Shown piece after piece: positions 464 through 61,899 of a stretch of DNA of 64,000 nt. The position numbers were made by a program, and so were the translations under genes. The stretch's first letter is position 1. Each line of letters begins with the position of its first letter. Source of the DNA: an uncultured Verrucomicrobiae bacterium (lineage in GTDB: Bacteria; Verrucomicrobiota; Verrucomicrobiia; Limisphaerales; JAFGQR01); contig CAWBHS010000059.1 in assembly GCA_963788655.1 (NCBI GenBank), forward strand, positions 1-64,000, read 5' to 3'. The notes beneath the pieces are model-generated. The model did no database searches, was not told where the DNA came from, and saw only the letters and a program-made list of their open reading frames with translations.

Positions 464-2855
464 TTACGGTTTGTACAGAGCGCGATAGAATCGGCTTGGG
501 TAGTTGGAAGCGGAAGAATCGGTGAACGTAAAGGGCGCAACGTTTGTGACCAATGCAATCCAGTTGGTCGTATTCAGTTCGTGTTTGCTTGGATGATCCG
601 TACGTGAATTCAGAACCTGGCCAACTGTCAGGCGGAACTGGCTGTTGCTGTAGGTTGCGGAACTGAGCGTGGCTTGGCTGGTCAGCACCGTCAAGACCGC
701 GACCGCGCTGCTGACTGAGCCGGACGAATTCGTGGCGACGACGGCGTAGTTTCCGGCGTTGTTGGTCTGAACGCCCGTGATGGTGTAACTGGAACTTGTG
801 GCCCCGCTGATGTTCGCAGCGTTAAACTCCCACTGGTAAGTCGGCGTTGGCGTGCCGATGGCGCTGGCCGCGAACGTGACGTTCTGGCCTTGGTAAACCG
901 TCTGGCTCTGCGGCTGGGTCGTAAAGACCGGCGCCGCGGGGAGAACCAGGTCGAGAAGCACGTTGCCCATAGCGCCGTTGTTGCCGTCCCCGCGATGCGG
1001 TAGGTCGTCCGCCTGTGGCCGTGAAAATTACTCGGCTGGCCCCGTTGCCCAGGGAACCGTTGTCGCTGCCAACGGTCGTCAGGCTCCCAACGCTGGAGCC
1101 CGTATAGACGGCCAGCAGCGTATTGAAGCTGCTTCCCAATGTGTCAATCGTCACACTCCCGCTGGCAGGGGCCGTCCAATTGGTACCAGACGGATGCGCC
1201 ACCGGCATTTCCGGCGTGATTCGCTTCGCCGGACCCTTTGAGGCGCGCAGGTCGGTGCCGTTGGTCGTGCCTTGTGAACCGCTGACGACGATGGCATTGG
1301 CAAAAAGGTCGTTCGTGGTAATCGGCGCCGGTCCGCGGTCGCACCAGACGCCCCACCGTCCTGAACCATTCGTCAGGATTCCCGAATACTGCGCCGCATA
1401 TTCCTGAATGGTCAAAAATCCGCGCCGTTCACCGGGTCCACCCACGTCATGCTGTAATCGCCCACGGTTTGTCCCGAGGGAATCTAAGAGAGATTTCCAA
1501 TACGACGACTGTCCCGCCCTGTAGAGATAATCCGGTTCGAGCGTTCCCATCGGCTCGTTGAGCGCATGTAAGGAATAGTTGGCACTGGCATATTGATTCG
1601 TCCCAAAACGGGAGTAACCGATGAGCGCGTCCCCGAATCGGTTCACCGCAATGCTTGGGAATGCATACATCGTCGCGCCGCTCGAATCGTCCAGCCGCCC
1701 ATTCTGAAGAACATTGCCATTCGTGCCATTGCCGCCGCTGCACAGCGCAGCGCGTTGGGTTGTTTGCGGGGAGAAAAATAGTGTGCGCACACCAGAGCGA
1801 GCCGTTTCGATAGACGACCTGGCTCAAGCGCGAGTCCACCGTGTTGATGGCCGGTACATCCGGCTGGCCGAGTTGGGGCGCGATGTTGCCGTTGTTCGGT
1901 CCGGCGCTGGCCCAAGCGGGTGCGCTGGGGAAATTGGTGGAGCGTGCAAGCGTGGCCGAGCCGGCGCTGCCGGTGATGGTGTAGAGGGCCAGTAAGCTTG
2001 AGTTGGTGGGATTGTCCTGGAAATCCTGGAGCAGATACAACGTGGCGTCGTTCGTGTCGTACGTGACCGCCGGTCTGAGGTTATAGCCGTTGGTCGTGGT
2101 TCCCGACCGATACGGTTGGTAGAACGACTGCGGGGTCACTGAGCCACCGGCATAGACGTTCGTCTTGTTCAAGACGAACAGCCCGACCCCGTCGGCTCCT
2201 CCGACGTAAATCGGGAAATAGTTCCAGGAAATGGCAATTTTGTCCCGGTTGAAGCCGGGCGTCGGGAAGTCAGCCCAAGAGTAACCGCTCGTGTCCACGT
2301 CCCACCCGTAGGCGTAACAGCCTCCGGAGGGGTTGCTGTTTGTGGAAACGGCAATGAGAATCGCAGAACCAGTATACCGGTTTGCGGTCGCCGTTGCGAC
2401 CCATCGTTGGCTGTAAGGGTCGTTCAGAATGCGCGGGTCAAAGACAACGCTGAGGCCGGAAATCCGGCTTTGCCACCAGCTTAACAAGGAAGTGGTGCTG
2501 ATAGTGTTCCCGCTGCGGTCTTGAATGCGCACCTGGGTATTGAGCATGGTGACCACGTTGCTGGGGCCAACGCACCCGTCGGTGTCAGGAGGCCAAGTGA
2601 AGTTGTTGTCATCCAGCCCTGGGAAGTTGGTCGTCGGCGCAGGGGAGTTCGGCAGCACCGGTGGAAACGGGGATGGCGCTGGTGTCGGGGCCGGCATCTC
2701 CACGGCGTTGGTCGGTAACGTGCCGGTGTTCGTGACAATGATCAAAGGAGGGATGTCTTGACCGAGCGTGGAGTGAGGCAAGAGCAGACCCAGGGACAAA
2801 AGTCCGCTGAGGACTGTTCCGATTCGGATTTGCTGTTCTTGTTGTTTGTTTTCAT
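464..2855 (-). CDS. Large secreted multidomain protein (beta-rich N-terminal domain, NDxFANA module, Ig-like domain, C-terminal RFYRA); several frameshifts
   Basis: ORF pieces 1447-2919, 822-1790 and 464-970 join into one gene. Motifs: PPDTDGCVGP..FDPRI, NDLFANA, PVFTTQPQSQTV..YQW..GNYAVVATN, and terminal PSRFYRALYKP. Confidence 0.7.
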
Positions 2856-2920
2856 GTATTGACCTTTCATTATGGTTGCGCTTTGGACTCGCCCGCGACG
2901 TTCGCACGGGCGTTCGCACG

Positions 2921-3050
2921 GGCTAACGAATCAAGCTCAGGCACGGCTGCCCCGGCAGATCGGCCTGTGCGCAAAGGAGACAAACAATGAAGAACAAAAT
3001 AATGAACGCAGTGGAGTGGGGCAGACGTTGCCTGGAGCGCCTGGTTAGGC
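2921..3050 (-). mobile_element. attC site, array 1
   Basis: Minus strand reads GCCTAAC-CAGGC-GCTCCAGG...CCTGAGC-TTGATTC-GTTAGCC. The inverse core complements the preceding core GTTAGGC. Confidence 0.85.
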
Positions 3051-3921: not shown

Positions 3922-4338
3922 CTATTTCGTCGCCTCCTTCAACATCTCCTGCATCTTCTTGTCGCGCTTCATGGTGAAACCCATGATCTCGCCTGCATCT
4001 TCCGGCTTTAGGCTATCGTCCGCAGCATCTGTGTCGATGATCTTCCCATCTCGAATCAAAACCAGAAAGTAGTAAGGACTCTGCTCGTCACCCTGCAAAA
4101 ACTCGTAGTCAGGACTGTTCACGGTAATCGGCTTGGCAATCTCCGGAGTCAGTTCGCGGACGTAGAGCTTGAGGCCACTCTTGGTGGTGTGCTCCAGCTT
4201 GTAGTCGGGGGACGCCATGACCTCGGGAGCCGTCGCAGGAACGAGCCGCTTGGTCTTGGTAGATGAACCGCCTTCCTTCGAGCAGCCGATAAGGCAAAGC
4301 GTGGCGACGAGTGAAACGATGATGGTGCGTATGTTCAT
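3922..4338 (-). CDS. Cassette lipoprotein
   Basis: MNIRTIIVSLVATLCLIG-C lipobox; starts just after the intron 3' end. Confidence 0.75.
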   Translation of the reverse strand: MNIRTIIVSLVATLCLIGCSKEGGSSTKTKRLVPATAPEVMASPDYKLEHTTKSGLKLYVRELTPEIAKPITVNSPDYEFLQGDEQSPYYFLVLIRDGKIIDTDAADDSLKPEDAGEIMGFTMKRDKKMQEMLKEATK

Positions 4339-4353: not shown

Positions 4354-5170
4354 ACCGGGTAGGCGTAGGCGGTCACCCGCCCACGCCCCCCTAAGAACCG
4401 GACTTGAAAGTTTCCCTTCATCACGGCTCAAGCCTCTCCAAGGCCACCCCGGATGCGGGGGACCCGCGTAACCAGGAGGCCGGTGACACCCAAAGGCGTC
4501 ATGGACCTTCCCAATCCCACTTGGCAATACCGGTCGGCGGCCATATCGCGCTCGGCTCCTTTGGGCCGCAGCACCGAGAGGCACCAAGCGACGGGCGTCG
4601 CTCGTCCTATGCTTCTCTCGCTTGAAGGGGTTCCGCTGATTTTCTTGCCAGGAGACACCAGATCGACGTGGGCATATCCGGTCCATTACCGACCGGCCTT
4701 GGCTTGTTCGATCCTCTTCATGCTGCCTCCCCTGGGCCTGCCTTGCGGTCGGCTTGCCTGGATACTCTCCAGGCGGGAACTGGCAGCTTTTCCATGTTCC
4801 GCATTCTCCACAGGATGGGTTAGGTCCACTCTCTACACCGGCGGTGCAACATTCGCGTCGGGCTACGTTAGACAGCCCGAACCTGACCGCTGGCCTTGTT
4901 TTGGCCGGAGCCTTAAAACAGCCTCGTTTGGCTCGTTCCTCTGACGATGCTTGCAAGTGTTCACATGGGTTGACCCTACCATCCGATTCTAGCGCCGCAC
5001 CCGGATTGAGGCTCCCAGGCTGGCTACATTGTCGGGAAGGCTTCACACCCTGGACAGTAGCCTTGCGGCCGCCCGTCCAACGCATGCTTCCCTGGAATAC
5101 CTGCCGCGAAAGGCAGGACTGAGTCAGGTTGCCCATGCTCAGCAGTGATGAATGCGACTTCATGTCACAA
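4354..5170 (-). mobile_element. ORF-less group II intron, copy 1 (817 bp), inserted in an attC core
   Basis: Domain V GAGCCGTGATGAAGGGAAACTTTCAAGTCCGGTTC at 4395-4429. Domain VI has a bulged A 7 nt from the end. An EBS1-like loop contains CTAACG. Near-identical to 60959-61775. No RT ORF. Confidence 0.9.
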
Positions 5171-5276
5171 CTAACGCCCAAGTGAGCGACCGGCGGCGTG
5201 AAGCGTTGGCCCACCCGGAACGCCTCGCGAGAAGCCCAGGGCGTGATCGCCGGTTCGCTCCACTGACTGGTTGTGC
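5171..5276 (-). mobile_element. attC site, core interrupted by intron copy 1
   Basis: Minus strand GCACAAC-CAGTC-AGTGGAGCGAACCGGCG...CGCCGGTCGCTCACT-TGGGC-GTTAG, then the intron, then CC. Confidence 0.85.
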
Positions 5277-18532: not shown

Positions 18533-19514
18533 CGATACCATTTCGCGCGAAGGCTGCTTCAGCGGTGAATGCCCTGGGAATGCCCGAACTAAGCGGCGGC
18601 GCCTCCGGCTGTTCCCTCTCCCCGCGGGAGAGGGTTAGGGTGAGGGGGAACGCGATGTCCGGACCAGGCATCCGCCCGGAAATGGCGGGCGGCACGGCAG
18701 GAACGCTTTTAGACGGTACGCATCGCAGAGCGGTTCCTTCCCCCTCACCCCGGCCCTCTCCCCAGGGGAGAGGGAGCCCGTTCGGCCGCGAGGCACAGGA
18801 ATGGATGGCAGTCCAACCTCCGATACCGTTTCGCGCGAAGGCTGATTGGGCGGGGAATGCTCTGGGAACGCTCAAACCAATTGGCGGCGCCTCCGGCTGT
18901 TCCCTCTCCCCGCGGGAGAGGGTTAGGGTGAGGGGGAACGCGATGTCCGGACCAGGCATCCGCCCGGAAATGACGGGCGGCACGGCAGGAACGCTTTTAG
19001 ACGGTACGCATCGCAGAGCGGTTCCTTCCCCCTCACCCCGGCCCTCTCCCCAGGGGAGAGGGAGCCCGTTCGGCCGCGAGGCACAGGAATGGATGGCAGT
19101 CCAACCTCCGATGCCGTTTCGAGCGAAGGCTGATTGGGCGGGGAATGCTCTGGGAAGCTCGAACCAATTGGCGGCGCCTCCGGCTGTTCCCTCTCCCCGC
19201 GGGAGAGGGTTAGGGTGAGGGGGAACGCGATGTCCGGACCAGGCATCCGCCCGGAAATGGCGGGCGGCACGGAAGGAACGCTTTTAGACGGTACGCATCG
19301 CAGAGCGGTTCCTTCCCCCTCACCCCGGCCCTCTCCCCAGGGGAGAGGGAGCCCGTTCGGCCGCGAGGCACAGGAATGGATGGCAGTCCAACCTCCGATG
19401 CCGTTTCGAGCGAAGGCTGATTGGGCGGGGAATGCTCTGGGAACGCTCAAACCAATTGGCGGCGCCTCCGGCTGTTCCCTCTCCCCGCGGGAGAGGGTTA
19501 GGGTGAGGGGGAAC
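18533..19514. repeat. Tandem array of about 3.4 x 288-bp units, each with two opposed REP-like palindromes
   Basis: Unit starts at 18533, 18821, 19109 and 19396. Palindromes: ccctctccccgcgggagaggg and ccctcaccccggccctctccccaggggagaggg. Confidence 0.95.
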
Positions 19515-26532: not shown

Positions 26533-26706
26533 ACACCATCTGCGTTGACCGCCTTCTTGGCTAACGCCTGCCGCACCTGGAAGAAAGCTGGATAAAGCCA
26601 GCAAAACGGCATCCTCCACTCAAGAAGCCAAGCGGCAACAAACGTCAGGCAGTTCCATCAATGGCCGGAATCGGAAGCTTTGCATCACGGCGGCCTCGCT
26701 TGACCT

Positions 26707-28941: not shown

Positions 28942-28991
28942 AGTGGATTATCAACCAGTTAGAGATGGGATTTCGCGGTTCATGGGGTAAA
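28942..28991 (-). promoter_or_regulatory. CRISPR leader (short)
   Basis: Relatively AT-rich 50 bp between the cas2 stop and the first repeat. Confidence 0.6.
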
Positions 28992-29291
28992 TCAGAAGGG
29001 GCAGTTTTCGGGTTCGATCCATTTTTCGGCCACCAACCACAGACCGGAAAGCTCGGTGTCCCGTCGATGGGTTTCGCCGTAGGTTTCGATTTTGAAGCCC
29101 TGGCAATTGTTGTCACTGGAGACGATGAGCATGCCCAAACCTTCGGCATTGCGCTTGATGTAGGCGAGCGTTTTGTCCCGCGTACGCCGGTTCAGGGTAC
29201 CGACAAACACATTGGGACGTGGCTCAATAAACCAACGCTTGAGCATGCCGCGAATGGCATCCGGGGTATCATTGGCAACGATGACGGTCAC
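28992..29291 (-). CDS. cas2: Type I-E Cas2
   Basis: MTVIVAN..P..IRGMLKRWFIEPRPNVFVG..N.QGF. Confidence 0.95.
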   Translation of the reverse strand: MTVIVANDTPDAIRGMLKRWFIEPRPNVFVGTLNRRTRDKTLAYIKRNAEGLGMLIVSSDNNCQGFKIETYGETHRRDTELSGLWLVAEKWIEPENCPF

Positions 29292-29334
29292 GGGTTGGTT
29301 GGGGGTTGAGCGCTGAGCATTGCGGGTTCACGGT

Positions 29335-30183
29335 TCACGGTTTGGCCTCGGGGGCGAACAGGGCCTCGAGGTCTTTGGGCAGGCGGGCCAGGAGTTTTTC
29401 CTCTTCCACCCGCTGCTTGAGCAGTTTGCGGGTCAATTCACCGTCGTCATCCGGTTTTTGCCGAATGGCCTGGAACGCGGCGGGGATGCTGGTCAGGTGC
29501 TTGTAGAGGTCGGCCACGTCGTAAATGAACGGCAGCGTGCCCGCGTCGTGAACAAACCCGAGACTGGGCAGGTAGCCCAACGAACAGACCACCGCCGCGC
29601 AGAGCGCATAGAGACTGGCATTGGCGGCCGACAGGGCTTTGTTGATGCCGTCGGCAATGTCCCAATTGCTCTTGTTGTAATTGCGGCCTTTCCAGGTGAC
29701 GCCGTGCTTGAGGCCCATTTCGGCGTAAAGCGTCCGCACGCGCAAGCCTTCCATGCCGCGCAATTCCTTGATCGACCGGCTGGCCACGTCCACGTCCGGA
29801 AAACGCATCCGGAACATGCGCCGGGCCACCTCCGTGCGCCGCTTCTTGTCGGCCCACACACTGGCGTGATATCGGGGCATGTCGTTGTCGTGATTGGGCG
29901 CCAGCCCGAAGGCGTAGAACCGCATCACTTCCTCGCCGGTCCAGCAGACGGGCGTGTTGGAGTCGGCGCACGCTTTCATGGCGGCGTGGGTGACGGTAGT
30001 GCCGGGTCCCAGCAGGAGCGCGGACACCGTAGCCACCGGCAACCGGCAGAGCAACCCGTCGGCGCCAATCCATTTCACGCTGGAATCGTCCACCTCGATC
30101 CGGCCATGTTCGAGGTAAATCGGGGTCCAACGGTCGCGGGCCATGGCGAGCGTTTCGAGGGGTGGGCGTTCGAAGATGGGCAT
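29335..30183 (-). CDS. cas1: Type I-E Cas1
   Basis: YLEHGRI, LLLGPGTTVTHAA, LRGMEG, LGFVH and FIYDVADLYK. Confidence 0.97.
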   Translation of the reverse strand: MPIFERPPLETLAMARDRWTPIYLEHGRIEVDDSSVKWIGADGLLCRLPVATVSALLLGPGTTVTHAAMKACADSNTPVCWTGEEVMRFYAFGLAPNHDNDMPRYHASVWADKKRRTEVARRMFRMRFPDVDVASRSIKELRGMEGLRVRTLYAEMGLKHGVTWKGRNYNKSNWDIADGINKALSAANASLYALCAAVVCSLGYLPSLGFVHDAGTLPFIYDVADLYKHLTSIPAAFQAIRQKPDDDGELTRKLLKQRVEEEKLLARLPKDLEALFAPEAKP

Positions 30184-30236
30184 GGGAGGAAGAAAGGATG
30201 AATTATGAATTATGAGGGATGAAGTGCATGAGAACG

Positions 30237-30485
30237 TCAATGGCCGCCATACAGGATTGAATCGATGTCTCGAGGGCGAGTTTTACTTTTGGGGCTGGGG
30301 GTGGCGCGTTGGGCAATGGTGAAGAATGGATCGGCGGCGAGATCGCCCGAAGCGTTGCTGACCAGAGGTCCCAACTGCGCCGCCGGGTGCCCGCGGTACG
30401 AAAGGACAAAACACTCTCCGTCCGCAACGTGCCGAAGGATGCCTTTGGTGTTCTTCCGAATCTCGAGCAGGTTGATGGTCTTCAT
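30237..30485 (-). CDS. Phd/YefM-family antitoxin
   Basis: MKTINLLEIRKNTKGILRHVADGECFVLSYRGHPAAQL has the Phd-type pattern. Confidence 0.8.
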   Translation of the reverse strand: MKTINLLEIRKNTKGILRHVADGECFVLSYRGHPAAQLGPLVSNASGDLAADPFFTIAQRATPSPKSKTRPRDIDSILYGGH

Positions 30486-30752
30486 ACGGAGGAATCGTCA
30501 TCATAGACTACCGATTGCCGCCAGATTCCGTAGCGCAGGGTTGAAATTTGCCAGGTGCTACTCCATTCCAGGCAGGCTTGGGAGTTACGGACGGCTTGCC
30601 GAATGCAATTGGGCGATAAAGCAGATTGAAAATCTGCGCTACAGAAAAGTGTAGCGCCCGCCGCGTTTACGTCGCGCGAACTCACCGGCGAGGATACCTG
30701 CGCTGCGAACTCGCTGACGAAGTCCACCCTGTAGAATTGGATCATTTCGAGT

Positions 30753-31523
30753 TCAGCCTGATTGGGGGCGTTTGAGTTGAATGCGGCGCGGAGCGAACTC
30801 TCGTCCTACGGTGCCGCTGGAACGGCCATTGCCGAAACTCACTGGTTGGTCGTTGAACGTGGCTTGGACATCATCCAGTTGCTCGACTTCCACTTCCCGT
30901 TCGAATTGCGTCAAGGGGAGGACTGGCAGGCCCGCCTGCTTCAAGAGTTGCTCAAACACTGCGTTCATGCTGTCGCCCAGCACCGGGGCAATGGGGGAGG
31001 CCGGCAGGCAGCATTTACGTCCCAGCCAAATTCCCCAAATGGGATTGTGTAAGCCGGCGGCGATGGTTTCCAATGCGGGCTGGTTACCCTCCAGCAAAAC
31101 ACCGAAGCGAGCGTCCATCAGATATTCCCGCTCGGTCACCACGGCGTTTTCCTTCGGACCACCACTGGCCTTGCGGGGAATGAACTGGGCATGGGTCGTC
31201 TTGTCGTAACCGCCGCCAACAGTGTGGTAGTCCCTCAAACGTCGGCTGAGTCGCGGAACGTAAGCGGCTTCCGAACGCCGCGCACGGCTTCGCGGCAGCG
31301 AAACGCTGGTCAGCCGCAACGCCGCGATGGCGGCCAAGGTTTCCCGTTCGCGGGCCGAGCCTTTGGGCACTCCCAATGCCGCCGCCAGCAGACCGGCAAT
31401 GCCGCTTTTGCTGGGATGATGATTGGTGCCACGCCGTTGGAAGCGTGAGGCGGTGCCCCACGATTGCAATGGGCCATCAAGCAGGAAGCCGAGGCAGCCG
31501 TTAGCAGGATGTTCAGAGGACAT
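30753..31523 (-). CDS. cas5e: Type I-E Cas5 (CasD)
   Basis: LDGPLQSWG..PSKSGIAGLLAAALG, DYHTV and LGRKCC. Confidence 0.97.
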   Translation of the reverse strand: MSSEHPANGCLGFLLDGPLQSWGTASRFQRRGTNHHPSKSGIAGLLAAALGVPKGSARERETLAAIAALRLTSVSLPRSRARRSEAAYVPRLSRRLRDYHTVGGGYDKTTHAQFIPRKASGGPKENAVVTEREYLMDARFGVLLEGNQPALETIAAGLHNPIWGIWLGRKCCLPASPIAPVLGDSMNAVFEQLLKQAGLPVLPLTQFEREVEVEQLDDVQATFNDQPVSFGNGRSSGTVGREFAPRRIQLKRPQSG

Positions 31524-32541
31524 GGTTCACCAGTTCCTGGGTAAAGGTGTTGAGGTCGCTTTCGGGGATTTCCAGTTCCTTGACGGGCGCGAGGCTCCAG
31601 GTCTGCTTGAGCTGCGCATGGTGTTTCTTGACTCGGTCGATAGCTGCTTTTTCCCAGCCGCTGCGCGACCAGACCGGTTCTTCGAAGGCATTGATCAATT
31701 GCACCGGTTGGCCCTGATCTTTGTACAAGCCCAACACGTAACTGGGGAAGGTGTGGGCGTTCATCGAGTTCTTGCGAGCACCCGGCACGGCCATCAGCGT
31801 GGCCCGGATGAAGGCGTCCACGACTTTTTGCCGCTGTTCCTGAGTCAAACCGCCCAGGTGCTCGTCGTCGGCCAGCAAGCCGAGATTGAGCGCGGTATAA
31901 CGATAGTAAAGGGCAGACGTGAATTCCAGGGTGCCAATCATGCCGGCGCCGGCGTCTTCCGCGTCGCCCTTGCGATCATCCACGGCCGAAAAGAAATCGA
32001 TGTCGTTCTCAGCTTGGTGAACGGACAGGGCGTGACTGAACATGGCGGCGCCTTCGACGTTCAGCGTGGCGTCATTGGCGACCATGCGACCGAACAGGGC
32101 GATGTCAGCGGCATCCAATCGCGAGGCTTTGCGGCAAGCCTTTTTGGGGTCTTCGCCGCCGGCGACTGCGGTCGCGATTTGATCGATTTCGCCCGGTGAC
32201 AAATAGACGGCGGTCGTGACTTGCTCGGGATTTTTGCTATCGGGCTTGGAAAACTTCTCCAAGATTTCCGTGGCCTTGGCGGTTGCGACTTTTTCGTCCA
32301 AGCCTTTAGCTTTGAGTGCGGTGGTGAACGGCTCGAGCAGAATACGGCTGCGAATGCCGGCAAACAAAGGATCGGGCTCCAGTTCGCGGGCCAGCAGCCG
32401 CACGGCGCGCTTCAAACACTGGCTGGACAGACGGGCCCGATTGACGCCGCCGAACACGGCGCTTTTGGGCGCGCCAACGTCGTCACGGTTCAAGCAGGAG
32501 ACGGGGAAGGATTGGAGAATATGGAGTTCGATGAGTTTCAT
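31513..32541 (-). CDS. cas7e: Type I-E Cas7 (CasC/Cse4)
   Basis: IELHILQSFPVSCLNRDDVGAPK, SSQCLKR, DIALFGRM and DFFSAVDD. Confidence 0.97.
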   Translation of the reverse strand: MKLIELHILQSFPVSCLNRDDVGAPKSAVFGGVNRARLSSQCLKRAVRLLARELEPDPLFAGIRSRILLEPFTTALKAKGLDEKVATAKATEILEKFSKPDSKNPEQVTTAVYLSPGEIDQIATAVAGGEDPKKACRKASRLDAADIALFGRMVANDATLNVEGAAMFSHALSVHQAENDIDFFSAVDDRKGDAEDAGAGMIGTLEFTSALYYRYTALNLGLLADDEHLGGLTQEQRQKVVDAFIRATLMAVPGARKNSMNAHTFPSYVLGLYKDQGQPVQLINAFEEPVWSRSGWEKAAIDRVKKHHAQLKQTWSLAPVKELEIPESDLNTFTQELVNHVL

Positions 32542-32612
32542 GCGATTGGTTGGTGGTTATTAGTTAGGTGTTGAGAGTTGAAACATGCGAGGGGGAGCGA
32601 TAGCTTTTGCCC

Positions 32613-32819
32613 ATGAGCACGGTAAAAGAAATCGAAGCTGCCATTGAAAAACTGCCCCGCCAAGAATTGTGGCAGTTGAAGGCGCATTTGGACTGCCGCT
32701 GCGAAGCGGAATGGGACGCGCAAATTGAAGAGGATGCACGGCCGGACGGTCCGTTGGACAATCTAGCACAGGAAGCCATCGCTGAATTCAAGGCGGGCCG
32801 CTGCACTCCGTTGCCGTGA
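32613..32819 (+). CDS. Putative antitoxin
   Basis: MSTVKEIEAAIEKL...WDAQIEEDA...G.LD.LA..A; overlaps the toxin start (GTGA). Confidence 0.75.
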   Translation: MSTVKEIEAAIEKLPRQELWQLKAHLDCRCEAEWDAQIEEDARPDGPLDNLAQEAIAEFKAGRCTPLP

Positions 32820-33077
32820 GGCACGCCACCACACCGGATTTCTGGAGGCACTATCGGTTGCTGCCGTCTAACATTCGGCGGTTGGCGCGCAAGAACTACC
32901 GGCTGCTGCGGGAGAATCCCCAGCATCCGAGCCTGCACTTCAAGCCGGTAGGGCCGCATACCTGGTCGGCTCGTGTCGGAATTAAATATCGGGCGTTGGC
33001 GGCCCAGTCCGGGGCGAACTTCATCTGGTTTTGGATTGGGTACTCATGACGAATACGAGCGCTTAATCGGCGGCTGA
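32816..33077 (+). CDS. RelE/ParE-superfamily toxin; frameshift near the C-terminus
   Basis: FW..Y..LP, HPSLHFK, WSARVG..YRAL and WFWIG, with THDEYERL restored by removing one base. Confidence 0.8.
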
Positions 33078-33719
33078 AAGCGGCGCCAACGCCAGCAGGC
33101 CGAAGCCGAACGACTTGGCGGAACCGATGCCGTGGGAAAACGCTTCGAGGAACTTGGCGCGGTCGGACACGGTCAACACGCCTTTGAATTCCATGCCCTG
33201 CAACACGCCGTGCATGGCTTTGGCCGCCGAACCGTTTCCCGGCTTGAAGAAGCGTTCCTTACGCGCCGGATGAATGCGCAGCTTGGCGGTGTCCACTTGG
33301 AAGCCCCCAGCGTCAGCTTTCCGCGCCAGCCAGGCTTCGAGGGCTTCACGCTGCGTCAGCGGCACGCGGACGCCATTCTTTTTGCGCGTGCCATCCGGAA
33401 GATCCACACGCAATTTGCGGGTCGGGTTCGCCCGCAACTGGAAGGCGTATTGGCGGTGATCAAAGAAATCCTCCGGGATCGACTTGGTTTCCCAGGTATC
33501 GGTCGGACACCAATCCGGTCGGGCCGGTGCGTCAGAGGACAACAGCAACAGTTGAAAGCCCCGGTCTTGCACATCCAGGCGCGTGAGAAAATCGCGAGGC
33601 GCATCGTCACGTCCAGGAAATGCTTCCCACACGGCTTGGTGCCAGCGGTAGGCGTCGCGCAGACCGCGTTTGAAGGCCAGTTCGTAATCGACAAAAGCGC
33701 GGGAGAGAAACTGCGTCAT
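33063..33719 (-). CDS. cas6e: Type I-E Cas6 (CasE/Cse3)
   Basis: DAYRWHQAVW, FQLRANPT and the GIGSAKSFGFGLL glycine-rich loop. Confidence 0.95.
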   Translation of the reverse strand: MTQFLSRAFVDYELAFKRGLRDAYRWHQAVWEAFPGRDDAPRDFLTRLDVQDRGFQLLLLSSDAPARPDWCPTDTWETKSIPEDFFDHRQYAFQLRANPTRKLRVDLPDGTRKKNGVRVPLTQREALEAWLARKADAGGFQVDTAKLRIHPARKERFFKPGNGSAAKAMHGVLQGMEFKGVLTVSDRAKFLEAFSHGIGSAKSFGFGLLALAPLSAAD

Positions 33720-34264
33720 GGCGCGACCTCCATTTCCGCAGTGGGCGTTGGCTCGCTCTCGGGCAGTGCGGGCGCGCTCCAATACTCTCTCGCCCATTCC
33801 ACCAGAACCCGTTTTGGATTCGACGCAAACGCGCTCAGGTCATCGAACAACCGGGCATAGTCAATGGCTTTGCCCGAAGCCTTGGCCATTTTGGCGAGGT
33901 GCATGATTTGGTTGCACAAGTCGGGCTGCGTTTCACAGGCGAGCAGACGCCGGAACCGGCGTTCAAACGCCTCTTCACGTCCTTGCGCCAGATGCCGGCA
34001 GGTAACGCCGAAGTTGCCGATTGGCTGATGCTCGGGATGCAGCGCGTATAGCGCGCCGACCGTTTGGTACACCAACCGAAGCTTGGGCTCGAAGGCAAGC
34101 GAGCCGGCCAACGCGCCCAAAGCCGGCCAGGCTTGTGATTCGGTGGTGGGACTCAGCGCCCGGCGCAGTTCCGCCAGGCGGCCGCGATCTTTTTTCTCGG
34201 TCAGCTTAAGCAGCCGTTCGACGAACGACTGGGCCAATGGTGATGGTTCGGATGTTTTTTTCAT
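33716..34264 (-). CDS. cse2: Type I-E small subunit Cas11 (Cse2/CasB)
   Basis: RGRLAELRR, FERRFRRLL, IDYARLFDDL and WAREYW. Confidence 0.9.
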   Translation of the reverse strand: MKKTSEPSPLAQSFVERLLKLTEKKDRGRLAELRRALSPTTESQAWPALGALAGSLAFEPKLRLVYQTVGALYALHPEHQPIGNFGVTCRHLAQGREEAFERRFRRLLACETQPDLCNQIMHLAKMAKASGKAIDYARLFDDLSAFASNPKRVLVEWAREYWSAPALPESEPTPTAEMEVAP

Positions 34265-35689
34265 GTAGATTCCTTGGGGGGTTTTGGCGGACGAAGTTTG
34301 CGCAGTCCGACGGCAAAAGCTTGAATCTGGCGGGGTGTTTCCCGGGCACACGCATATTGATAGGCTTCATGAGCAGCCCGGCGAACCGAACGTGTCCAAT
34401 CGACATCGGCTTGCCAAAAGTCTTTACCCTCCAGCAGTGCGACATTCTGGATCACTGCCATGAGCTCGGGCCAGTGCTGGTCCAACGCGTTCCAGTAATG
34501 GCGTTCGGCCCGAGCTCGATCCGGCGGAGCTTTCAACACGGCGGCACAGTCGCTGACCGCTTTGCCCAAGCGGTCACGCCAGGCATTGGCCAATTCGACG
34601 CCCCGTTCGTAAATGGGCTGCCGGTCTTCTAAAAGCAGTTCGCGCGGCACGTCGTAAACCGCTTCCACCGTGTCTTCGTATTTACCTTTGCCGTCGGTCA
34701 CGAGCGCGCCGAGCCAGATCCGTTGGAAGGGCGCGGGGTCAGGTCGCTGGAGAGGCAGCGGCCGGTTGCCTTTCAAATGCTGCCGCGCTTCCACGACATG
34801 CTGCAAGTCCCGCCAGGGTTGCTTGTTCAAGTCCGCGCGCAGGAGGTAGCGTTCCTCTTTGTCCTTTTTGGAAATGGTGAGCACCGTTGCTGCCGCTTCG
34901 CGGTATTCCTCGAACATTGGATGCGAAATGCCAGGCTTGGCCATTTCAAAGAAGAGCCCGTTCTCGTTCAGCCAAATCTGTCGGGTGACCGGGACCAATC
35001 GTCCAAGGAAACTCAACGTGACATTGTGGACGAAGTCTTTGTCATCGAAATCGATGGGAGCTTCCCACACGGGACGGCCAAATCCCTGCGGAAAAACTCG
35101 GCCAGCGGTTTCACGGTCCACCCCGTTGGCGAGGATGCTGTGCAGCAGGCTGTCACCCACGAGCCACGTTTGGAGAAAATGGCGGTCAAGGCACGGTGAC
35201 TTGCCAGTGTAACCTGCGCCAATGCTGGCGGACATGTTTTGAAAACTCAGCAACGCCAGCGCAAACTCGGCAGGTTCCAAATGCCGCGCCCCGCCGCCTT
35301 CGTGGTCAAACAGGGTAGGATTGTTCCCGCTGGCGCGATGGAACAGCATTTTGCTGGCTTCGAACTCGGACATGGCAGTGGCGCGGCACTGCAAGAACCG
35401 CGGCCCCGAGCCGAACAGTTCGAAAGCCGAGCGCCATTTCTCAAGATATGCCGCCGCCGCTTGCGGCAATTTATCCGCAGCTTCGTCCCAGCCCCATTCA
35501 TCGGCGGGGCCGTCCAAGGCTCGCTTGTGCCACGCAGACGAGCAGACGCATCAAGGCTATGCGTTCGTGCGGACGCACGGCCAGGTCGGCAATCCGGTCG
35601 CCCTCGCGAAACACGTCAGCGAGACTGATCAGACGGTTGGTTCCGTCGCGATAGGTGACTGGGATCCAAAGATCAAAACCAAGATTCAT
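34261..35689 (-). CDS. cas8e: Type I-E large subunit Cas8e (Cse1/CasA); frameshift near 35520
   Basis: MNL..D.WIPV, RLL, FELF..GPRFLQ and SGNNPTLFDH; located directly after cas3. Confidence 0.9.
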
Positions 35690-38282
35690 CGTCTTCTTCT
35701 TTCCATGCAGGTTCAGTTGGTTTGGCCACCCGAGCGATTTTCACTCCGGTGCTGGTTTGGTATTCGAGCGCAAAAGCCGGATCGCTGGCGGGAATGGAGA
35801 TGGCGCCGTCGTCAGGGTCGAGCACCCCAAAGACTGCCGTGCCTTTGAAATGCAGGCGAAGCCAGTCAGGTTGCGCCTCGGTCCCTAAAGCCGAACGGAT
35901 GGCGTAGAGCGGTAGCCGCACCGAATTACGGTGAATGGCCGCTGCCACCGGGAATCGCCATTCAAATGAACTGGCGGCAAGCGATTCACCATTAAGGAAA
36001 CGAAGGGCAACGTCGCCGTGGTTGGTGGGTTCCGGCGCCGCCGTCAGCAGCAGCAGGTTGCCGCTGGGAAAATCGTCCCACCGCGTTTGCACGCCTTCCT
36101 CGTCGCGAAGTTGAATGTTTTCGAAGATGTTGGTTCGGCTTACCGCCTTGTTTCGCATGGCAGCAATTTGTTTGGCCAATTCGCGGCGAAATGAAATCCA
36201 GCCGGGTGGTTCATCGTTTTCATTTTGCTCCGCATACGTCGCCTCCAATAGCGCGCGTATGTCATTCGGCAGCTTTACCGCTTGCCGGTGCTGCCACACC
36301 TCGAGCGAACGCAGCAGCACATAAGGCGCATAAACGCGCGCCGACTTGCCCAAGGCTGCTTTGATGGTTTTGGCTTCAGCCGTGACCGGAAACTCTGGGC
36401 GCAGAATCCACACTTCCGGATGGCTGCGAGGACGTTGTTCCCGCGGATGCCGCCACAGTCTGCCCAGGCGTTGCAGCAGCATGTCCGTCGGCGCGAGGTC
36501 GGTAATCAACAAGTCGGCATCAATGTCCACGCTTTGTTCCACGACCTGCGTGGCCACGAGAACGCAGCCGCGCGGGCGAGCGGCATTACCCTTTCTCAGC
36601 GCTGCCATCCATTTCGTTTCCTGCTGCTCGCGTTGGAACTGAGGGAAACGGCTGTGCAACAATCCGATTTCCGGGCCACCTTCGCGCCGGGTTCCGTTCA
36701 ATTGCTCGTAAAGCGTCTGCGCTTCGGCGACAGTATTCTTGATTAACAGCACACAAGCCCCGGCCTCGGCGGCGGCGCAGATGGGTTCCAGCAGTTCCGC
36801 ATTCTCTTGCGGACGGCAAGAAACCTGAACGGTGCGATGTGAGTCTCTGGAGGTTTCCGCAGAATGTGATTCAACTTCTCCTCGTTCGTTCACCAGGCTG
36901 ACCAACGGGTAGGCATCCGTTGGCGACACGGATTTGGCACCGGCGAGCGCCAGCAGTTCCGTTCGTCGTTGAGCCGTGAGCGTGGCGGATAATATGATGA
37001 CTGTGCATCGCAAGGCCAGCAGCCGCTCAATCAGCCTATCCATGACCGAACCGGTGTAAGCATCGTAGGAATGAACCTCGTCGAGAATGACGACCTTGCC
37101 CGCCAAGCCAAACAATCGAACGGCCAGATATTTGGCTGCCACGGCTCCCAGCAGCGCCTGGTCAATGGTCCCGACTCCGTAGCGGGCCAGCAGTGCCTGT
37201 CGCGAAGACGCAAACCAGGAACGGCCTTGCTCAGCATGCTCATTGGCCTCGGCATCCGCTGCGGCCGGCAACAGCCGAATTTGCAAGTCTTGCTGGAGCC
37301 AGGAATTGGCGTGCGCCAGGGGATGGTCGGTTTCCTCGGCCAGCGCGTTGCGAAGGAAAGCCTCCACGCGCTCGTGGATGCGATTGCTCGTCAATTGCGT
37401 CGGCAGCGCGAAATACACGCCATGGTTTTGGCCGTTCGCAATCAACCGATAGGCAGCGGCCAAGGCGGCTTCCGTTTTTCCGCAACCCATCGGCGCTTCG
37501 ATTATGTAAAGGCCGGGTTGTCGGATGGTCTCCAGGCACACCTGCTGGAGCGAATTGGCCTCAAACCGCGGAGAATCGCCATCCGCAAAGAGTTCTCCGA
37601 ACTCCACTCCCAAACGCAATGCACCTTTGCCCCAGCGAATGGTCCGCAGCGCCGACTCGGCGAGCTTGGCGGATTTCTCCGGTGTGTAAGTCGTCCCGAG
37701 CGGGAAGAAGAATTCGTTGGATCCCAACCAATCGCTCACGGTGATCCACCCGGCTACCAGCAGCAATTGCTCGTCAGATTCGGGAGGCAACTCGGGCAAC
37801 GATCCGAATAGGCCCGTCAACCAAGTGAACAACTTTTCTCGCTCTGGTTGGAGCCCGGTTGCTTCGATTTCCTTCCGGCCAACAGGGCCTTGCCCCAGAA
37901 ACCGTCCGTGGTGACCGCCCACCGCCACGGCCCAATTTTGAATTTTGCCGCGAGGAAGCTTCCTGACGAAGAAGTTCTGGCTGACGGCGGCATGGTTGCT
38001 TTCCGAAAACTGCCAACCCGACGCAATCGCTTCCTCCGCCAGCCCATTTTCCACCAGCCAGTCCGGGCATTTGCGCAAGAACCCAACCGTGATTTTTCCT
38101 ATGTCGTGGCCGGCGGCAAGAATGGAGCATCCCGGCGGCAGTATCCGCCTTACAGATTCTGGCAAGCAGGAGCGTATCGCCTCCCCCACGCACCCCACAT
38201 TGAGACAGTGATCCTGCACGCTGAGGCCGGGCTTGCCGTCTGGCGTGGTTTTCGCCCAAAAATGAATTCCTTCCCAGTTCAT
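35673..38282 (-). CDS. cas3: Cas3 HD nuclease-helicase
   Basis: WAKT, H..V, HDIGK, HHG, SDWLGS, APMGCGKTE, DEVH, SAT, HSRF, ATQVVEQS and QRLGRLWRH. Confidence 0.98.
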   Translation of the reverse strand: MNWEGIHFWAKTTPDGKPGLSVQDHCLNVGCVGEAIRSCLPESVRRILPPGCSILAAGHDIGKITVGFLRKCPDWLVENGLAEEAIASGWQFSESNHAAVSQNFFVRKLPRGKIQNWAVAVGGHHGRFLGQGPVGRKEIEATGLQPEREKLFTWLTGLFGSLPELPPESDEQLLLVAGWITVSDWLGSNEFFFPLGTTYTPEKSAKLAESALRTIRWGKGALRLGVEFGELFADGDSPRFEANSLQQVCLETIRQPGLYIIEAPMGCGKTEAALAAAYRLIANGQNHGVYFALPTQLTSNRIHERVEAFLRNALAEETDHPLAHANSWLQQDLQIRLLPAAADAEANEHAEQGRSWFASSRQALLARYGVGTIDQALLGAVAAKYLAVRLFGLAGKVVILDEVHSYDAYTGSVMDRLIERLLALRCTVIILSATLTAQRRTELLALAGAKSVSPTDAYPLVSLVNERGEVESHSAETSRDSHRTVQVSCRPQENAELLEPICAAAEAGACVLLIKNTVAEAQTLYEQLNGTRREGGPEIGLLHSRFPQFQREQQETKWMAALRKGNAARPRGCVLVATQVVEQSVDIDADLLITDLAPTDMLLQRLGRLWRHPREQRPRSHPEVWILRPEFPVTAEAKTIKAALGKSARVYAPYVLLRSLEVWQHRQAVKLPNDIRALLEATYAEQNENDEPPGWISFRRELAKQIAAMRNKAVSRTNIFENIQLRDEEGVQTRWDDFPSGNLLLLTAAPEPTNHGDVALRFLNGESLAASSFEWRFPVAAAIHRNSVRLPLYAIRSALGTEAQPDWLRLHFKGTAVFGVLDPDDGAISIPASDPAFALEYQTSTGVKIARVAKPTEPAWKEEDDESWF

Positions 38283-43647: not shown

Positions 43648-44638
43648 CTGCCGGCAAGATGCCGGCAGCACATTGCGCAACGTGCTGCTGGCGTCCCGCC
43701 GGCAGAACCGAACACGAACTGTGGGTTAAAATTCCCGCCGCACCAGCAAGGCGTTGCAAAAAATGGAACCCCCCTCCCTATTCGATGAGTGGTTGGCGAG
43801 GCGCCAACCACAGCGCCCGGGGCGGGCGCGCTCCCCGAGGGGAATTGAAATGCGCTGGTTTGGTTCGGCAGCCCTTCCTGCAATCGATCTGCCGGCAAGA
43901 TGCCGGCAACACGCTGCGCAACGTGCTGCTGGCGTCCCGCCGGCAGAACCGAACACGAACTGTGGGTTAAATTTCCCGCAGCACCAGCAACGCGTTGCAA
44001 AAAATGGAACCCCCCTCCCTATTCGATGAGTGGTTGGCGAGGCGCCAACCACGGCGCCCGGGGCGGGCGCGCTCCCCGAGGGGAATTGAAATGCGCTGGT
44101 TTGGTTCGGCAGCCCTTCCTGCAATCGATCTGCCGGCAAGATGCCGGCAACACGCTGGCGCAACGTGCTGCTGGCGTCCCGCCGGCAGAACCGAACACGA
44201 ACTGTGGGTTAAAATTCCCGCAGCACCAGCAACGCGTTGCAAAAATGGAACCTCTCTCTCCTTTCCGATGAGTGGTTGGCGAGGCGCCAGCCACGGCGCC
44301 CGGGGCGGGCGCGCTCCCCGAGGGGAATTGAAATGCGCTGGTTTGGTTCGGTAGCCCTTCCTGCAATCGATCTGCCGGCAAGATGCCGGCAGCACGCTGC
44401 GCAACGTGCTGCTGGCGTCCCGCCGGCAGAACCGAACACGAACTGTGGGTTAAAATTCCCACAGCACCAGCAACGTGTTGCAAAAAATGGAATCCCCTCC
44501 TTATTCGTTGAGTGGTTGGCGAGGCGCCAGCCACAGCGCCCGGGGCGGGCGCGCTCCCCGAGGGGAATTGAAATGCGCTGGTTTGGTTCGGTAGCCCTTC
44601 CTGCATTCGATCTGCCGGCAAGATGCCGGCAGCACGCT
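43648..44638. repeat. Tandem array of about 4.1 x 241-bp units built from REP-like palindromes
   Basis: ctgccggcaagatgccggca starts at 43648, 43889, 44130, 44372 and 44612. Confidence 0.95.
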
Positions 44639-58350: not shown

Positions 58351-60060
58351 ATCAATATAGCCTATCCGCAGTTATTCACCGGAGGCCAGGCGCGCTCCGC
58401 GTTGCTCCGCCGCAGCCGCCGGTGAATAACTGCGCTGTCCGACATGATCACGATGATTCATACTTATTCGCATCCGTTGAATTGGTACCGTAGGGTATCC
58501 CGGTTTTCCCGCCTCCGTGGGCCAGGTCTGCGAACGACCAGTCGCCTGGACGACTTTGAGCTTTATCGACCGGCTCACGGGGCGGGCTTGCACCCTCTAA
58601 CGACTCCTCAGAGGGCGTTCACTGTTGCAGTGAGAACTCTCCTATATTGCCGTCGCTGGGTCAAGCCTGCGGGAAAACCACACCACCGAAAACCATGAAT
58701 GATTCGACGATGAAGCACGATTATCCGTATGACCTGGTCATCGGCCTGGACCGCTCCGACGCCACGGCCGACCTGCACACCATTGACGTGCATACCAACG
58801 GCCGCACCAACCAAACCATCGCGACCAGCCCCGAAGCGCTCCATGACTGGCTGGCCCAATTGCGCCAGCAACATCCCCAAGGCCGGGTGGCGATCTGCCT
58901 GGAACAACCTGCCGCCAATCTGCTGGCCTTCCTGGAAAGCTATGCCTGGATCACCCTCTACGCCATCAACCCGATGACGTTGAAAAACTTCCGGGAAGCC
59001 TTCGTCACCAGTCGCGCCAAGGACGACACTCAGGATGCCTATTATTTAGCTGAACTACTCCTGACTCATCCCGACAAGCTGACCGTGTGGACGCCCGAGG
59101 ACAGCGCCACCCGCCACCTGCAACAAGCGGTCACGCACCGCCGCGCGGTGGTGGACGAACGCACCGAGTTGACCAACCGGCTGCAAGCCCTCTTAAAGGC
59201 TTATTTTCCGCAGGCGTTGACCCTTTGTGGCCAGGAACTGTGGCGGCCCATGGCCACCGATTTGCTCCTAAAATGGCCCACCTTGGCGGCGATCAAAAAA
59301 GTCAAACCAGCGACCCTCAAACAATTCTACCGCCAGCACAATTCCCACAGCGCTTCCCTGCTGGAGCAGCGGCTCCAATGCATTAGCCAGGCGATTCCGC
59401 TCACGGAGGAAACCGCCCTGGTGGAAACCTACGCCCTGCGCGTGCAATTGATCGGTCGCCAACTCCAATTGGTGGTCGCGGCCATTGCCACGTACGACCA
59501 GCAGATCCAGGCGCGGTTTATCGCCCACCCCGATTACGCGATCTTCAAGAACTTGCCCGGGGCGGGACCGGTGCTGGCGCCGCGGTTGTTGGCCACGATG
59601 GGCAGCGTGCGCGAGCGCTTTCCCACCGCCGTCAGCTTGCAGTGCTACAGCGGGATTGCGCCGGTGACCAAACAGAGCGGCAACACGCGGCACGTGCATC
59701 GGCGCTACCTCTGTCCGAAGTTTTGCCGGCAGAGCTTTCATGAGTTTGCGGGCAGCTCGATCCTGTTCAGTCGTTGGGCGGCGGCGTATTATTTGCAGCA
59801 GCGGGAAGCGGGCGCGAACCATCACACGGCGGTGCGGGCGCTGGCCTACAAATGGCAGCGGATCATCTGGCGGTGCTGGCAGCGCCAGGAGGTCTATGAG
59901 GAGGCGCGTTATGCCGAAGCCCTGCGGCGCCACGGCAGCCCGATCGTGGGATTGTTCGATCAGATTGAGTTAGGCAAAAATCCCTATACCAGCCGCAAGA
60001 AAAAGGCCGCCCAGCGGGCGAAGAAAAAATGAAAAACCCGTTGACCGTTCACCTCAGAGA
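58351..60060 (+). mobile_element. IS110-family element inserted in an attC site (shared GA core; left end inferred)
   Basis: Removing it rejoins gcccaac-GA-tgagctcacc, restoring the attC right arm GGTGAGC-TCATC-GTTGGGC. TTGACC lies near the right end. Confidence 0.7.
58695..60032 (+). CDS. IS110-family DEDD recombinase/transposase
   Basis: IGLD, CLE, AKDDTQDA, LPGAG..LA and YSGIAPVTKQSG. Confidence 0.95.
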   Translation: MNDSTMKHDYPYDLVIGLDRSDATADLHTIDVHTNGRTNQTIATSPEALHDWLAQLRQQHPQGRVAICLEQPAANLLAFLESYAWITLYAINPMTLKNFREAFVTSRAKDDTQDAYYLAELLLTHPDKLTVWTPEDSATRHLQQAVTHRRAVVDERTELTNRLQALLKAYFPQALTLCGQELWRPMATDLLLKWPTLAAIKKVKPATLKQFYRQHNSHSASLLEQRLQCISQAIPLTEETALVETYALRVQLIGRQLQLVVAAIATYDQQIQARFIAHPDYAIFKNLPGAGPVLAPRLLATMGSVRERFPTAVSLQCYSGIAPVTKQSGNTRHVHRRYLCPKFCRQSFHEFAGSSILFSRWAAAYYLQQREAGANHHTAVRALAYKWQRIIWRCWQRQEVYEEARYAEALRRHGSPIVGLFDQIELGKNPYTSRKKKAAQRAKKK

Positions 60061-60591: not shown

Positions 60592-60687
60592 ACCGAACGC
60601 CAAGAGGACCGATGAGCGGCACCCCGAAAACGTTCGAACTGTAAACTGACGCGCTTGCCGCTCATTCGGTCGCTCGATTGGTTAGCT
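60592..60687 (-). mobile_element. attC site, array 2
   Basis: Minus strand AGCTAAC..GACCGAATGAGCGG...CCGCTCATCGGTC..GTTCGGT. Confidence 0.8.
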
Positions 60688-60948
60688 GATCGCATTATAA
60701 AAGGCATAAATCATCCACAAGGTCAACATCCCAGCTATAGCACCTGCAATCTTGTCCGCACCAGACTTCCGGAATAAAGCCACCGCCGACATGGCCAAGC
60801 ATAGAAGCAAACTGATCGAACCCACCGCCCAGACGTAATGCGGAATCGGCCGACCATTTGCAGGAGTCAAAGCGGGAAGAAATACTCCAGCAAAAAGTGC
60901 CATAATGATCGCGCTGATTCCTCTCCAAGATGGGATGTAGGCCGCCAT
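60682..60948 (-). CDS. Cassette small membrane protein, three TM helices, 88 aa
   Basis: Hydrophobic ORF starting just after the intron 3' end; the stop codon overlaps the inverse core. Confidence 0.7.
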   Translation of the reverse strand: MAAYIPSWRGISAIIMALFAGVFLPALTPANGRPIPHYVWAVGSISLLLCLAMSAVALFRKSGADKIAGAIAGMLTLWMIYAFYNAIS

Positions 60949-60958
60949 AATTCTTTAG

Positions 60959-61775
60959 ACCGGGTAGGCGTAGGCGGTCACCCGCCCACGCCCCCCTAAG
61001 AACCGGACTTGAAAGTTTCCCTTCATCACGGCTCAAGCCTCTCCAAGGCCACCCCGGATGCGGGGGACCCGCGTAACCAGGAGGCCGGTGACACCCAAAG
61101 GCGTCATGGACCTTCCCAATCCCACTTGGCAATACCGGTCGGCGGCCATATCGCGCTCGGCTCCTTTGGGCCGCAGCACCGAGAGGCACCAAGCGACGGG
61201 CGTCGCTCGTCCTATGCTTCTCTCGCTTGAAGGGGTTCCGCTGATTTTCTTGCCAGGAGACACCAGATCGACGTGGGCATATCCGGTCCATTACCGACCG
61301 GCCTTGGCTTGTTCGATCCTCTTCATGCTGCCTCCCCTGGGCCTGCCTTGCGGTCGGCTTGCCTGGATACTCTCCAGGCGGGAACTGGCAGCTTTTCCAT
61401 GTTCCGCATTCTCCACAGGATGGGTTAGGTCCACTCTCTACACCGGCGGTGCGCCATTCGCGTCGGGCTACGTTAGACAGCCCGAACCTGACCGCTGGCC
61501 TTGTTTTGGCCGGAGCCTTAAAACAGCCTCGTTTGGCTCGTTCCTCTGACGATGCTTGCAAGTGTTCACATGGGTTGACCCTACCATCCGATTCTAGCGC
61601 CGCACCCGGATTGAGGCTCCCAGGCTGGCTACATTGTCGGGAAGGCTTCACACCCTGGACAGTAGCCTTGCGGCCGCCCGTCCAACGCATGCTTCCCTGG
61701 AATACCTGCCGCGAAAGGCAGGACTGAGTCAGGTTGCCCATGCTCAGCAGTGATGAATGCGACTTCATGTCACAA
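60959..61775 (-). mobile_element. ORF-less group II intron, copy 2 (817 bp), inserted in an attC core
   Basis: Same length and sequence as 4354-5170, apart from a 2-nt difference seen near 61452. Removal restores GTTAGCT, the exact complement of the cassette inverse core AGCTAAC. Confidence 0.9.
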
Positions 61776-61899
61776 CTAACGCCGAGATGACCGACAGCTT
61801 TGGGAGCGCCAGCCTCGACTGGAATTATCGGTTTCAAGTTTCATGGTCGATGTCCGCTGCGAGGCGGGTGGGCTGTTCGGTCAATCGACATGGTTGGAC
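61776..61899 (-). mobile_element. attC site, core interrupted by intron copy 2
   Basis: Minus strand GTCCAAC..TGACCGAACAGC...GCTGTCGGTCA..GGCGTTAG, then the intron. Confidence 0.85.

Follow-up and report, generated by a model that had tools for sequence, protein, structure and literature searches.

How two almost identical introns, neither of which encodes a reverse transcriptase (RT), came to occupy two unrelated gene cassettes of one bacterial contig is the question raised by this locus. The stretch that was analysed, here called the window, comprises the first 64,000 nucleotides of contig C59 from an uncultured Verrucomicrobiae bacterium. In the original prediction, made from the sequence letters, the second copy was taken as a sign of recent mobilisation in trans by an RT/maturase encoded elsewhere. 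The element is identified here as a group IIB1-type intron of 817 nt without an ORF. It is inserted on the cassette-sense strand, 3′ of base +5 of the attC R′ box, and likely reached each site by retrohoming, for which a sister intron would have supplied its endonuclease-less RT/maturase in trans. We assign this reading a probability of about 0.75. It builds on the structure, boundaries and copy number of the intron, a common insertion register, complementarity and covariation between EBS1 and IBS1, and the sister RT genes of the same genome.

Structure and boundaries of the two copies

The starts of the two copies lie 56,605 nt apart on the minus strand (Table 1). As predicted, the copies have the same length and are nearly identical: upon alignment the only mismatch is found at intron nt 322-323 (AA at 4848-4849, GC at 61453-61454), immediately 3′ of α′ and ∼8 nt 3′ of the EBS1 stem. 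The flank common to both copies is just GGCGTTAG on the 5′ side and a single C on the 3′ side. The flanks differ right at both ends, which speaks against a duplication of flanking sequence together with the element.

Both copies match the Rfam models Intron_gpII (RF00029; 49.6 bits, cut-off 40) and group-II-D1D4-7 (63.2 bits, cut-off 34), which mark domains V-VI and a motif of domain I. Typical hallmarks of group II introns are present, including the AGC triad of domain V and a bulged A in domain VI, 7 nt from the 3′ end, and the intron strand folds better than 20 out of 20 shuffled sequences (z −5.8). Features of the IIB1 type are a 6-bp EBS1–IBS1 interaction, with EBS1 in a stem-loop, and the α–α′ pairing, for which covariation (a compensatory change in the C50-type subfamily) was read by eye. 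The names α, EBS2, DIVa and J2/3 are used in their conventional sense. EBS3 was not located, and the first base of the 3′ exon varies (G18, C9, A3, T2). Pairing of the candidate EBS2 is weak, with a mean of 3.6 out of 6 pairs against a background of 2.3-2.5.

The 5′ boundary is set independently by the EBS1 sequence CTAACG. Excision of copy 2 in silico restores an R′ box GTTAGCT, which, as had been claimed, is fully complementary (7/7) to the R″ box AGCTAAC of the next cassette (60687-60681); excision of copy 1 gives GTTAGCC, complementary at 6/7 positions to the R″ box GGCCAAC at 3914. The two introns are thus inserted after GTTAG of two different attC sites, in the orientation of the cassettes. 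Their ends, UUGUG...GU, deviate from the consensus GUGYG...AY, and are fixed by EBS1 together with the empty allele described below.

No RT gene is encoded within the 817-nt intron. A stop-free frame of 272 codons (60959-61774, minus strand) spans the whole intron in 7/7 genome copies and continues in frame into the gene after copy 1. As a coding sequence this frame was rejected: it has no Pfam match and is closed in 8/8 ORF-less relatives. Relatives of the intron are present in contigs from RNA libraries.

Table 1. Positions of the intron copies, their parts and the adjoining cassette features in the window.
Feature	Position	Strand	Remarks
ORF-less group IIB1-type intron, copy 2	60959..61775	-	817 nt, UUGUG...GU
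attC of upstream cassette	61776..61899	-	R″ GTCCAAC; CGTTAG (IBS1) terminal at insertion point
α UUUCGC	61711..61716	-	pairs with α′ 61456-61461
Candidate EBS2 GUCAGG	61487..61492	-	weak pairing to exon −12..−7
EBS1 loop CUAACG	61471..61476	-	complementary to attC R′ CGTTAG
Two-nt difference to copy 1 (nt 322-323)	61453..61454	-	standing allele in family
Domain IV hairpin AGCGAC-GCCN-GTCGCT	61192..61207	-	at former start-codon position; in all ORF-less relatives, absent from RT-bearing
Domain V	61000..61034	-	AGC triad, GAAA loop, one nt more than RT-bearing sisters
Domain VI	60959..60996	-	bulged A at 60965
Downstream cassette gene	60682..60948	-	88-aa hydrophobic protein, no Pfam match; stop inside R″
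attC of downstream cassette	60592..60687	-	R″ AGCTAAC, complementary to rebuilt GTTAGCT
ORF-less intron, copy 1	4354..5170	-	817 nt; Rfam and alignment
attC carrying copy 1	5171..5276	-	
Cassette gene after copy 1	3922..4338	-	138 aa, N-terminus lipoprotein-like by eye, no Pfam match
Empty allele: intron-free attC (GTTAG^CCCGTGCG) and cassette start	2613..3050	-	95% identical to cassette after C49 copy

Cassette arrays and surroundings

Each copy belongs to a cassette array on the minus strand, copy 1 to the one at ∼0.9-6.2 kb and copy 2 to the one at 60.3-65.5 kb. Just past the window, at C59:65.8-67.0 kb, an integron integrase gene (L034) is oriented divergently to the array at 60-65.5 kb, with an attI-like junction, recognised by eye, beside it. 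Copy 2 is therefore part of a full integron, and copy 1 of a separate, integrase-less array. Close to its start this integrase gene is broken by an in-frame stop, a defect also present in the C49 integrase gene; the C69 gene is uninterrupted. The final attC of the distal array is immediately followed by an IS110-family transposase (58647-60032). Between the intron copies a Type I-E CRISPR array with cas genes (Cas1e, Cas7, Cse1, Cas3) extends over 26704-38282, and tandem intergenic repeats with hairpin arms occur as 288-nt (18533-19514) and 241-nt (43675-44638) units. Loss of the 56.6 kb between the copies, also proposed originally, is no more than a geometric possibility, as for any direct repeat.

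Copies and candidate helpers in the host genome

The host genome (G000) is a metagenome bin, 86% complete with 5.6% contamination, in which copies were located by BLAST and motif scans. It contains seven full ORF-less copies (two on C59 and one each on C9, C49, C80, C93 and C17), which share 98.8-100% identity and occupy unrelated cassettes. A full-length RT-bearing relative, sought as a check on the prediction, was found in four sisters of ∼2.2 kb, on C44, C46, C99 and, more distant, C50, all with the register and EBS1 of the ORF-less copies. The ORF-less form thus accounts for 7/11 complete copies. In addition, there are four intron fragments (at the end of C9, two on C27, and one on C56). 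At C27:23212-23883 fragments of 265 nt and roughly 30 nt from the intron 5′ part open two consecutive cassettes, and the C56 piece is 399 nt long, 5′-truncated and without an attC.

An intron-free version of one of the occupied cassettes was likewise sought, and was found within the window itself, where 2908-2613 is a twin of the cassette that follows the C49 copy. Its junction, GTTAG^CCCGTGCG, shows neither duplication nor loss, and insertion of the intron is therefore precise.

The helper that had been postulated to be encoded elsewhere thus has candidates in the sisters. The C44 protein is a group II RT/maturase of 505 residues with a YADD motif, which passes TIGR04416, contains the RVT_N, RVT_1 and GIIM domains, and has no domain of a nuclease family. 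In sequence, domain IVa of the ORF-less intron is only 57-68% identical to that of the proposed helper. Every assembled sister RT carries a lesion of its own, so that the assembly contains no flawless helper: the C44 RT has Thr198 where 96/97 relatives have Ile, the C99 RT has Trp79 where 96/97 relatives have Arg, the C46 RT has a premature stop after residue 401, and the C50 RT is frameshifted. An intact copy may be absent from the incomplete assembly, or the lesions may be consensus errors. Other RTs of the genome (five of 492 aa, two of 441 aa and two shorter ones) were set aside as helper candidates; the three tested form very long branches.

The genome also harbours other intron families, on C24, C38 and C62 and on C39, C60, C68 and C107. 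Three introns of other families stop just before R″-like words (AGCGAAC, ACCGAAT), and the five identical introns with the 492-aa RT have short IIC-like ends.

Of the two separate homing events originally proposed, independent insertion is borne out by the seven copies in unrelated cassettes and by the empty allele, whereas mobilisation in trans, with a lesion in each assembled RT, stands as the probable explanation. A recent date for the events is plausible in view of the 0-3 differences that separate the seven copies across nt 339-817, but the two-nucleotide difference dates nothing. The TT allele at nt 322-323 is also carried by the C9 copy, the metagenome loci L204 and L214, and contigs from runs X1, X3 and X15, and domain I is exchanged between copies, so that the difference represents a standing allele rather than a clock.

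Targeting of attC

All 13 intron starts of the genome with upstream DNA, including one with an extra G and one degenerate start, follow an R′-like CGTT(A/G/C)G, in a genome with 974 CGTTAG and 11,438 CGTTGG words. A scan of metagenomes with an intron-internal pattern gave at least 80 loci, some of which are duplicates, and the attC identity of their exons was judged by R′ and L′ motifs rather than by a covariance model. Among the loci listed, 79/79 exons of at least 8 nt end in an R′-like hexamer, 76 of them with CGTT, and EBS1 pairs at 6/6 positions in 40/43 readable cases, four of which carry a compensatory change. Of 82 distinct target exons 89% contain an L′-like motif, against 14% of the 974 genomic CGTTAG words. 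A crude attC filter is passed by only 30 of these 974, and every insertion lies in an attC context. Six bases cannot account for such specificity, which suggests a second targeting determinant. The attC finder that was used recovers 8/13 occupied sites and gives false positives, and its output is not a census.

A quick RT tree was calculated for 79 RT relatives from named genomes, from which L082, L099 and L115 had been dropped because of stops or length. The relatives with an exon that ends inside a GTT word are found in one clade of 23 rows (SH-aLRT 88), which includes the RTs of the host genome and spans Verrucomicrobiota, Thermodesulfobacteriota, Bacteroidota, Chlorobiota and Tharpellota. 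By eye, GTT is present in the last 6 nt of 14 of the 19 visible exons in this clade; L120 is stacked behind such a site, and L062, L064, L086 and L137 lack GTT there. Outside the clade the count is 0/33 visible exons. Registers within the clade range from +4 to +6, and EBS1 changes accordingly.

The ORF-less form as a probable lineage

The metagenome loci listed comprise 24 complete copies of RT length, 7 complete ORF-less copies and 1 other, besides 13 that are truncated and 35 that run into a contig end. Among the complete ones the ORF-less share is 7/32, a figure to be read with the easier assembly of short forms in mind; their lengths bunch at 814-825 nt. The 13 shortened copies, some of them fused to an attC end, look like products of decay, and no signs were found that they make new cassettes.

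In all ORF-less copies the position of the former start codon is taken by a hairpin, and their ORF remnants are related. The hairpin occurs in nine of the metagenome loci listed, none of which is RT-bearing. The tip of domain IV is 75-95% identical among ORF-less copies versus 53-69% to RT copies, and the remnant 52-81% versus 30-48%, while the architecture of domain IV is maintained relative to C44.

Trees were calculated per segment for 10 ORF-less and 32 RT-bearing rows, with segment borders chosen after the alignment had been viewed. In domain IV the 10 ORF-less rows form one clade (SH-aLRT 98; 100 for the tip alone), with a long-branch warning. A single ORF-less clade is rejected by domain I (p-AU 9e-33, at least five changes forced) and by domains II-III (p-AU 5e-6), and is neither supported nor rejected by the 5′ part of domain IV (p 0.51) and the last 125 nt (p-AU 0.26), the latter grouping the window copy with subfamily A (95*). 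The nearest domain I of each ORF-less copy belongs to an RT-bearing intron, with identities of 94-98% overall (97% for the window copy and C44/C99, 98% for L149 and L169, 98% for L204 and L214). Along the intron, identity of the window copy to C44 is 97% in nt 1-345, and then falls to 85%, 68% and 61%. Variation among the ORF-less copies of the genome is concentrated in nt 1-338 (0-11 differences, versus 0-3 beyond), and at sites 95, 186 and 338 both alleles occur in both the ORF-less and the RT-bearing class of the host genome.

Because domain IV forms one clade and domain I groups with RT-bearing neighbours, these trees point to an old non-autonomous lineage that would renew its 5′ half by recombination with RT-bearing sisters. 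The ORF-less domain IV appears, from these comparisons, to predate the split of its helpers.

The ORF-less domain IV recurs at 97-99% identity in contigs of other runs (X1, X4), and an X15 contig joins it to domain V without an ORF. A search of 400 further genomes of the phylum, with two candidates scored per genome, did not recover this domain IV. In a search for the whole element in 60 related genomes five matched, none over the full length; G056 carries a shorter deleted form without EBS1 CTAACG and without the hairpin. Nothing above 60% identity was found in plasmids, and a sequencing-run word search with the window gave 22 rows with shares of 0.05-0.09, no run reaching half.

In a reading without homing in trans, each attC would first have been invaded by an RT-bearing intron, which acquired the ORF-less form later, when it recombined homologously with a resident ORF-less copy. 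In favour of this, the two classes have evidently recombined, identity of domain I to the RT copies is 96-97%, and the C9 copy has A797 in common with the RT-bearing domain VI. However, six of the seven copies are of the ORF-less type in domains II-VI to the last base, and C9 deviates only at 797 and 817. At the 3′ end itself some dozen nt are identical to RT copies, which leaves too little room for repeated crossovers, and the identical ORF-less introns L175 and L217 occupy different attC sites. We consider this conversion unlikely.

Still less probable is convergence, in which ORF-less copies arose by separate deletions of local RT-bearing introns and the kinship of their domain IV reflects long-branch attraction. 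The grouping of each ORF-less domain I with a different RT-bearing neighbour would fit separate deletions, as would the meeting long branches flagged by the tree tool and the placement of the window copy in subfamily A by the last 125 nt, although there one ORF-less clade is not rejected. Convergence does not readily explain the specific hairpin, confined to the ORF-less class, the higher identities of tip and remnant within that class, or the narrow range of complete lengths among the loci listed. Finally, an assembly artefact, or a cassette-level or segmental duplication carrying the intron, is very improbable: despite the contamination of the bin and two contigs that terminate at or inside an intron, the flanks differ at both ends, each junction rebuilds an R′ matching its own downstream R″, the copies differ by haplotypes present in other datasets, the ORF-less domain IV is found at 174/176 identity in DNA run X4, and the carrier contigs have host-like tetranucleotide profiles (r 0.98-0.999).

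Proposed mechanism

Under the preferred reading, homing with the RT of a sister, the intron would be transcribed within the cassette-array RNA and splice as a lariat, with the helper protein on the structurally kept domain IVa. The resulting RNP would reverse-splice into the top strand of attC via EBS1 and the second determinant, which may consist of the attC fold, the L′ box and perhaps the weak EBS2. Since an endonuclease domain is absent, the replication fork would presumably provide the primer for cDNA synthesis, a route that a review describes for En-minus introns (PMC4424553). The occupied attC still reads GTT(AGTT), and as a consequence the site is likely still recombinogenic and the intron is likely carried along with the downstream cassette. 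Since IBS1 is not destroyed by the insertion, a repeat hit is possible, and a stack in which another intron precedes the resident can likely form; tandem homing has been demonstrated for another IIB1 intron (PMC12584367). A single crossover in such a stack would join the 5′ half of the newcomer to the ORF-less 3′ half of the resident, leaving the ORF-less domain IV as one lineage and letting domain I follow the RT-bearing neighbours. The same pattern would also be expected from ectopic conversion or from template switching.

A stack of the order attC, RT, RT, ORF-less is present in G061, the 825-nt ORF-less member belonging to a different ORF-less family, and is a candidate intermediate of such renewal. 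No stack of the family of the window intron was seen in G000 or among L141-L220. At G061 C1:3,306,435-3,354,083 (L281-L283) seven attC-like sites in 50 kb carry introns of the same RT clade, some copies being interrupted by insertions.

A wider proposal, which we regard as evenly poised between right and wrong, is that bacterial group II introns have, in this element, a partner comparable to a SINE. A single old lineage of ORF-less domain IV would have persisted in two subfamilies and many hosts by homing to attC with borrowed RTs, and would take domains I-III from whichever RT-bearing sister is stacked ahead of it at that attC. With its helpers the lineage would represent a second, cross-phylum, attC-specialised clade that reads the sense-strand R′ and rides cassettes via integrase shuffling.

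Comparison with known systems

The comparisons draw on portions of the cited papers. The closest counterpart is UHB.I2, a group IIB1 intron with a CL1 En-minus protein from a soda-lake cassette array (Sonbol & Siam 2021, PMC7923331). Like the window intron, UHB.I2 is inserted in cassette orientation directly after or in attC, and has no clear EBS3 and no endonuclease. Both have non-canonical ends (UUGCG..GU in UHB.I2), and the window intron shows the same combination of sense orientation at attC and UUGYG..GU ends. In a comparison by eye, the first 400 nt and the protein start of UHB.I2 resemble the RT-bearing sisters of the genome; the sisters' protein has the RVT_N, RVT_1 and GIIM domains, and its assignment to CL1 is tentative, the likeness to the UHB.I2 protein again being one seen by eye. 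UHB.I2 is a single RT-bearing example, whereas the window intron is an ORF-less, multi-copy satellite. The portions of that paper report poor exon conservation and no EBS1-to-R′ rule, in contrast to the rule found here in dozens of loci with covariation. Among the papers listed from the literature outside subscription journals this one, with a single full-length example, was the only source for a group IIB intron located at an integron site of this kind.

Group IIC-attC introns such as S.ma.I2 are also En-minus specialists of integron attC sites, but insert into the bottom strand at R″, opposite to the cassettes, with TTGT/T and a 3-4 bp EBS1 (PMC3001079, PMC7923331). The window intron, inserted in the top strand inside R′ (+5) in cassette orientation, with a 6-bp EBS1 and an IIB-type RNA, falls outside that group.

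Trans-mobilisation of ORF-less IIB1 introns has been demonstrated for TeI3 of Thermosynechococcus elongatus (CL1/IIB1; PMC2882425). In TeI3, to which the window intron is likened, the ORF-less copies are more numerous than the RT-bearing ones, have a single deletion and a changed DIVa in common, and are moved in trans by driver proteins; here, too, several copies occupy sites with which EBS1 pairs well, and an RT-bearing relative is present in the same genome. The description of TeI3 covers one genome, in which its EBS sequences have diversified. The ORF-less domain IV of the present family, by contrast, is found in several datasets and in two subfamilies that are ∼75% alike in domain I, and the family has retained attC as its single target, while its 5′ half appears to be exchanged with that of helpers.

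Implications

The present analysis contributes the observations that the ORF-less domain IV forms one clade across several datasets and that its domain I groups with RT-bearing neighbours. In the relevant part of a 2015 review, ORF-less bacterial group II introns were considered rare and non-mobile derivatives were suggested to be short-lived (PMC4424553). With ORF-less shares of 7/11 in the genome and 7/32 among the metagenome loci listed, and a seemingly old domain IV, the family offers a testable example of a lasting non-autonomous retroelement, as well as a testable case of domain exchange between ribozymes. Its clade represents a second retroelement route of reading attC, on the strand opposite to that used by IIC-attC introns, and illustrates that a six-base guide is insufficient alone for attC specificity. 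Insertion in the sense strand may alter the read-through expression and the recombination of cassettes, including those of arrays with adaptive genes.
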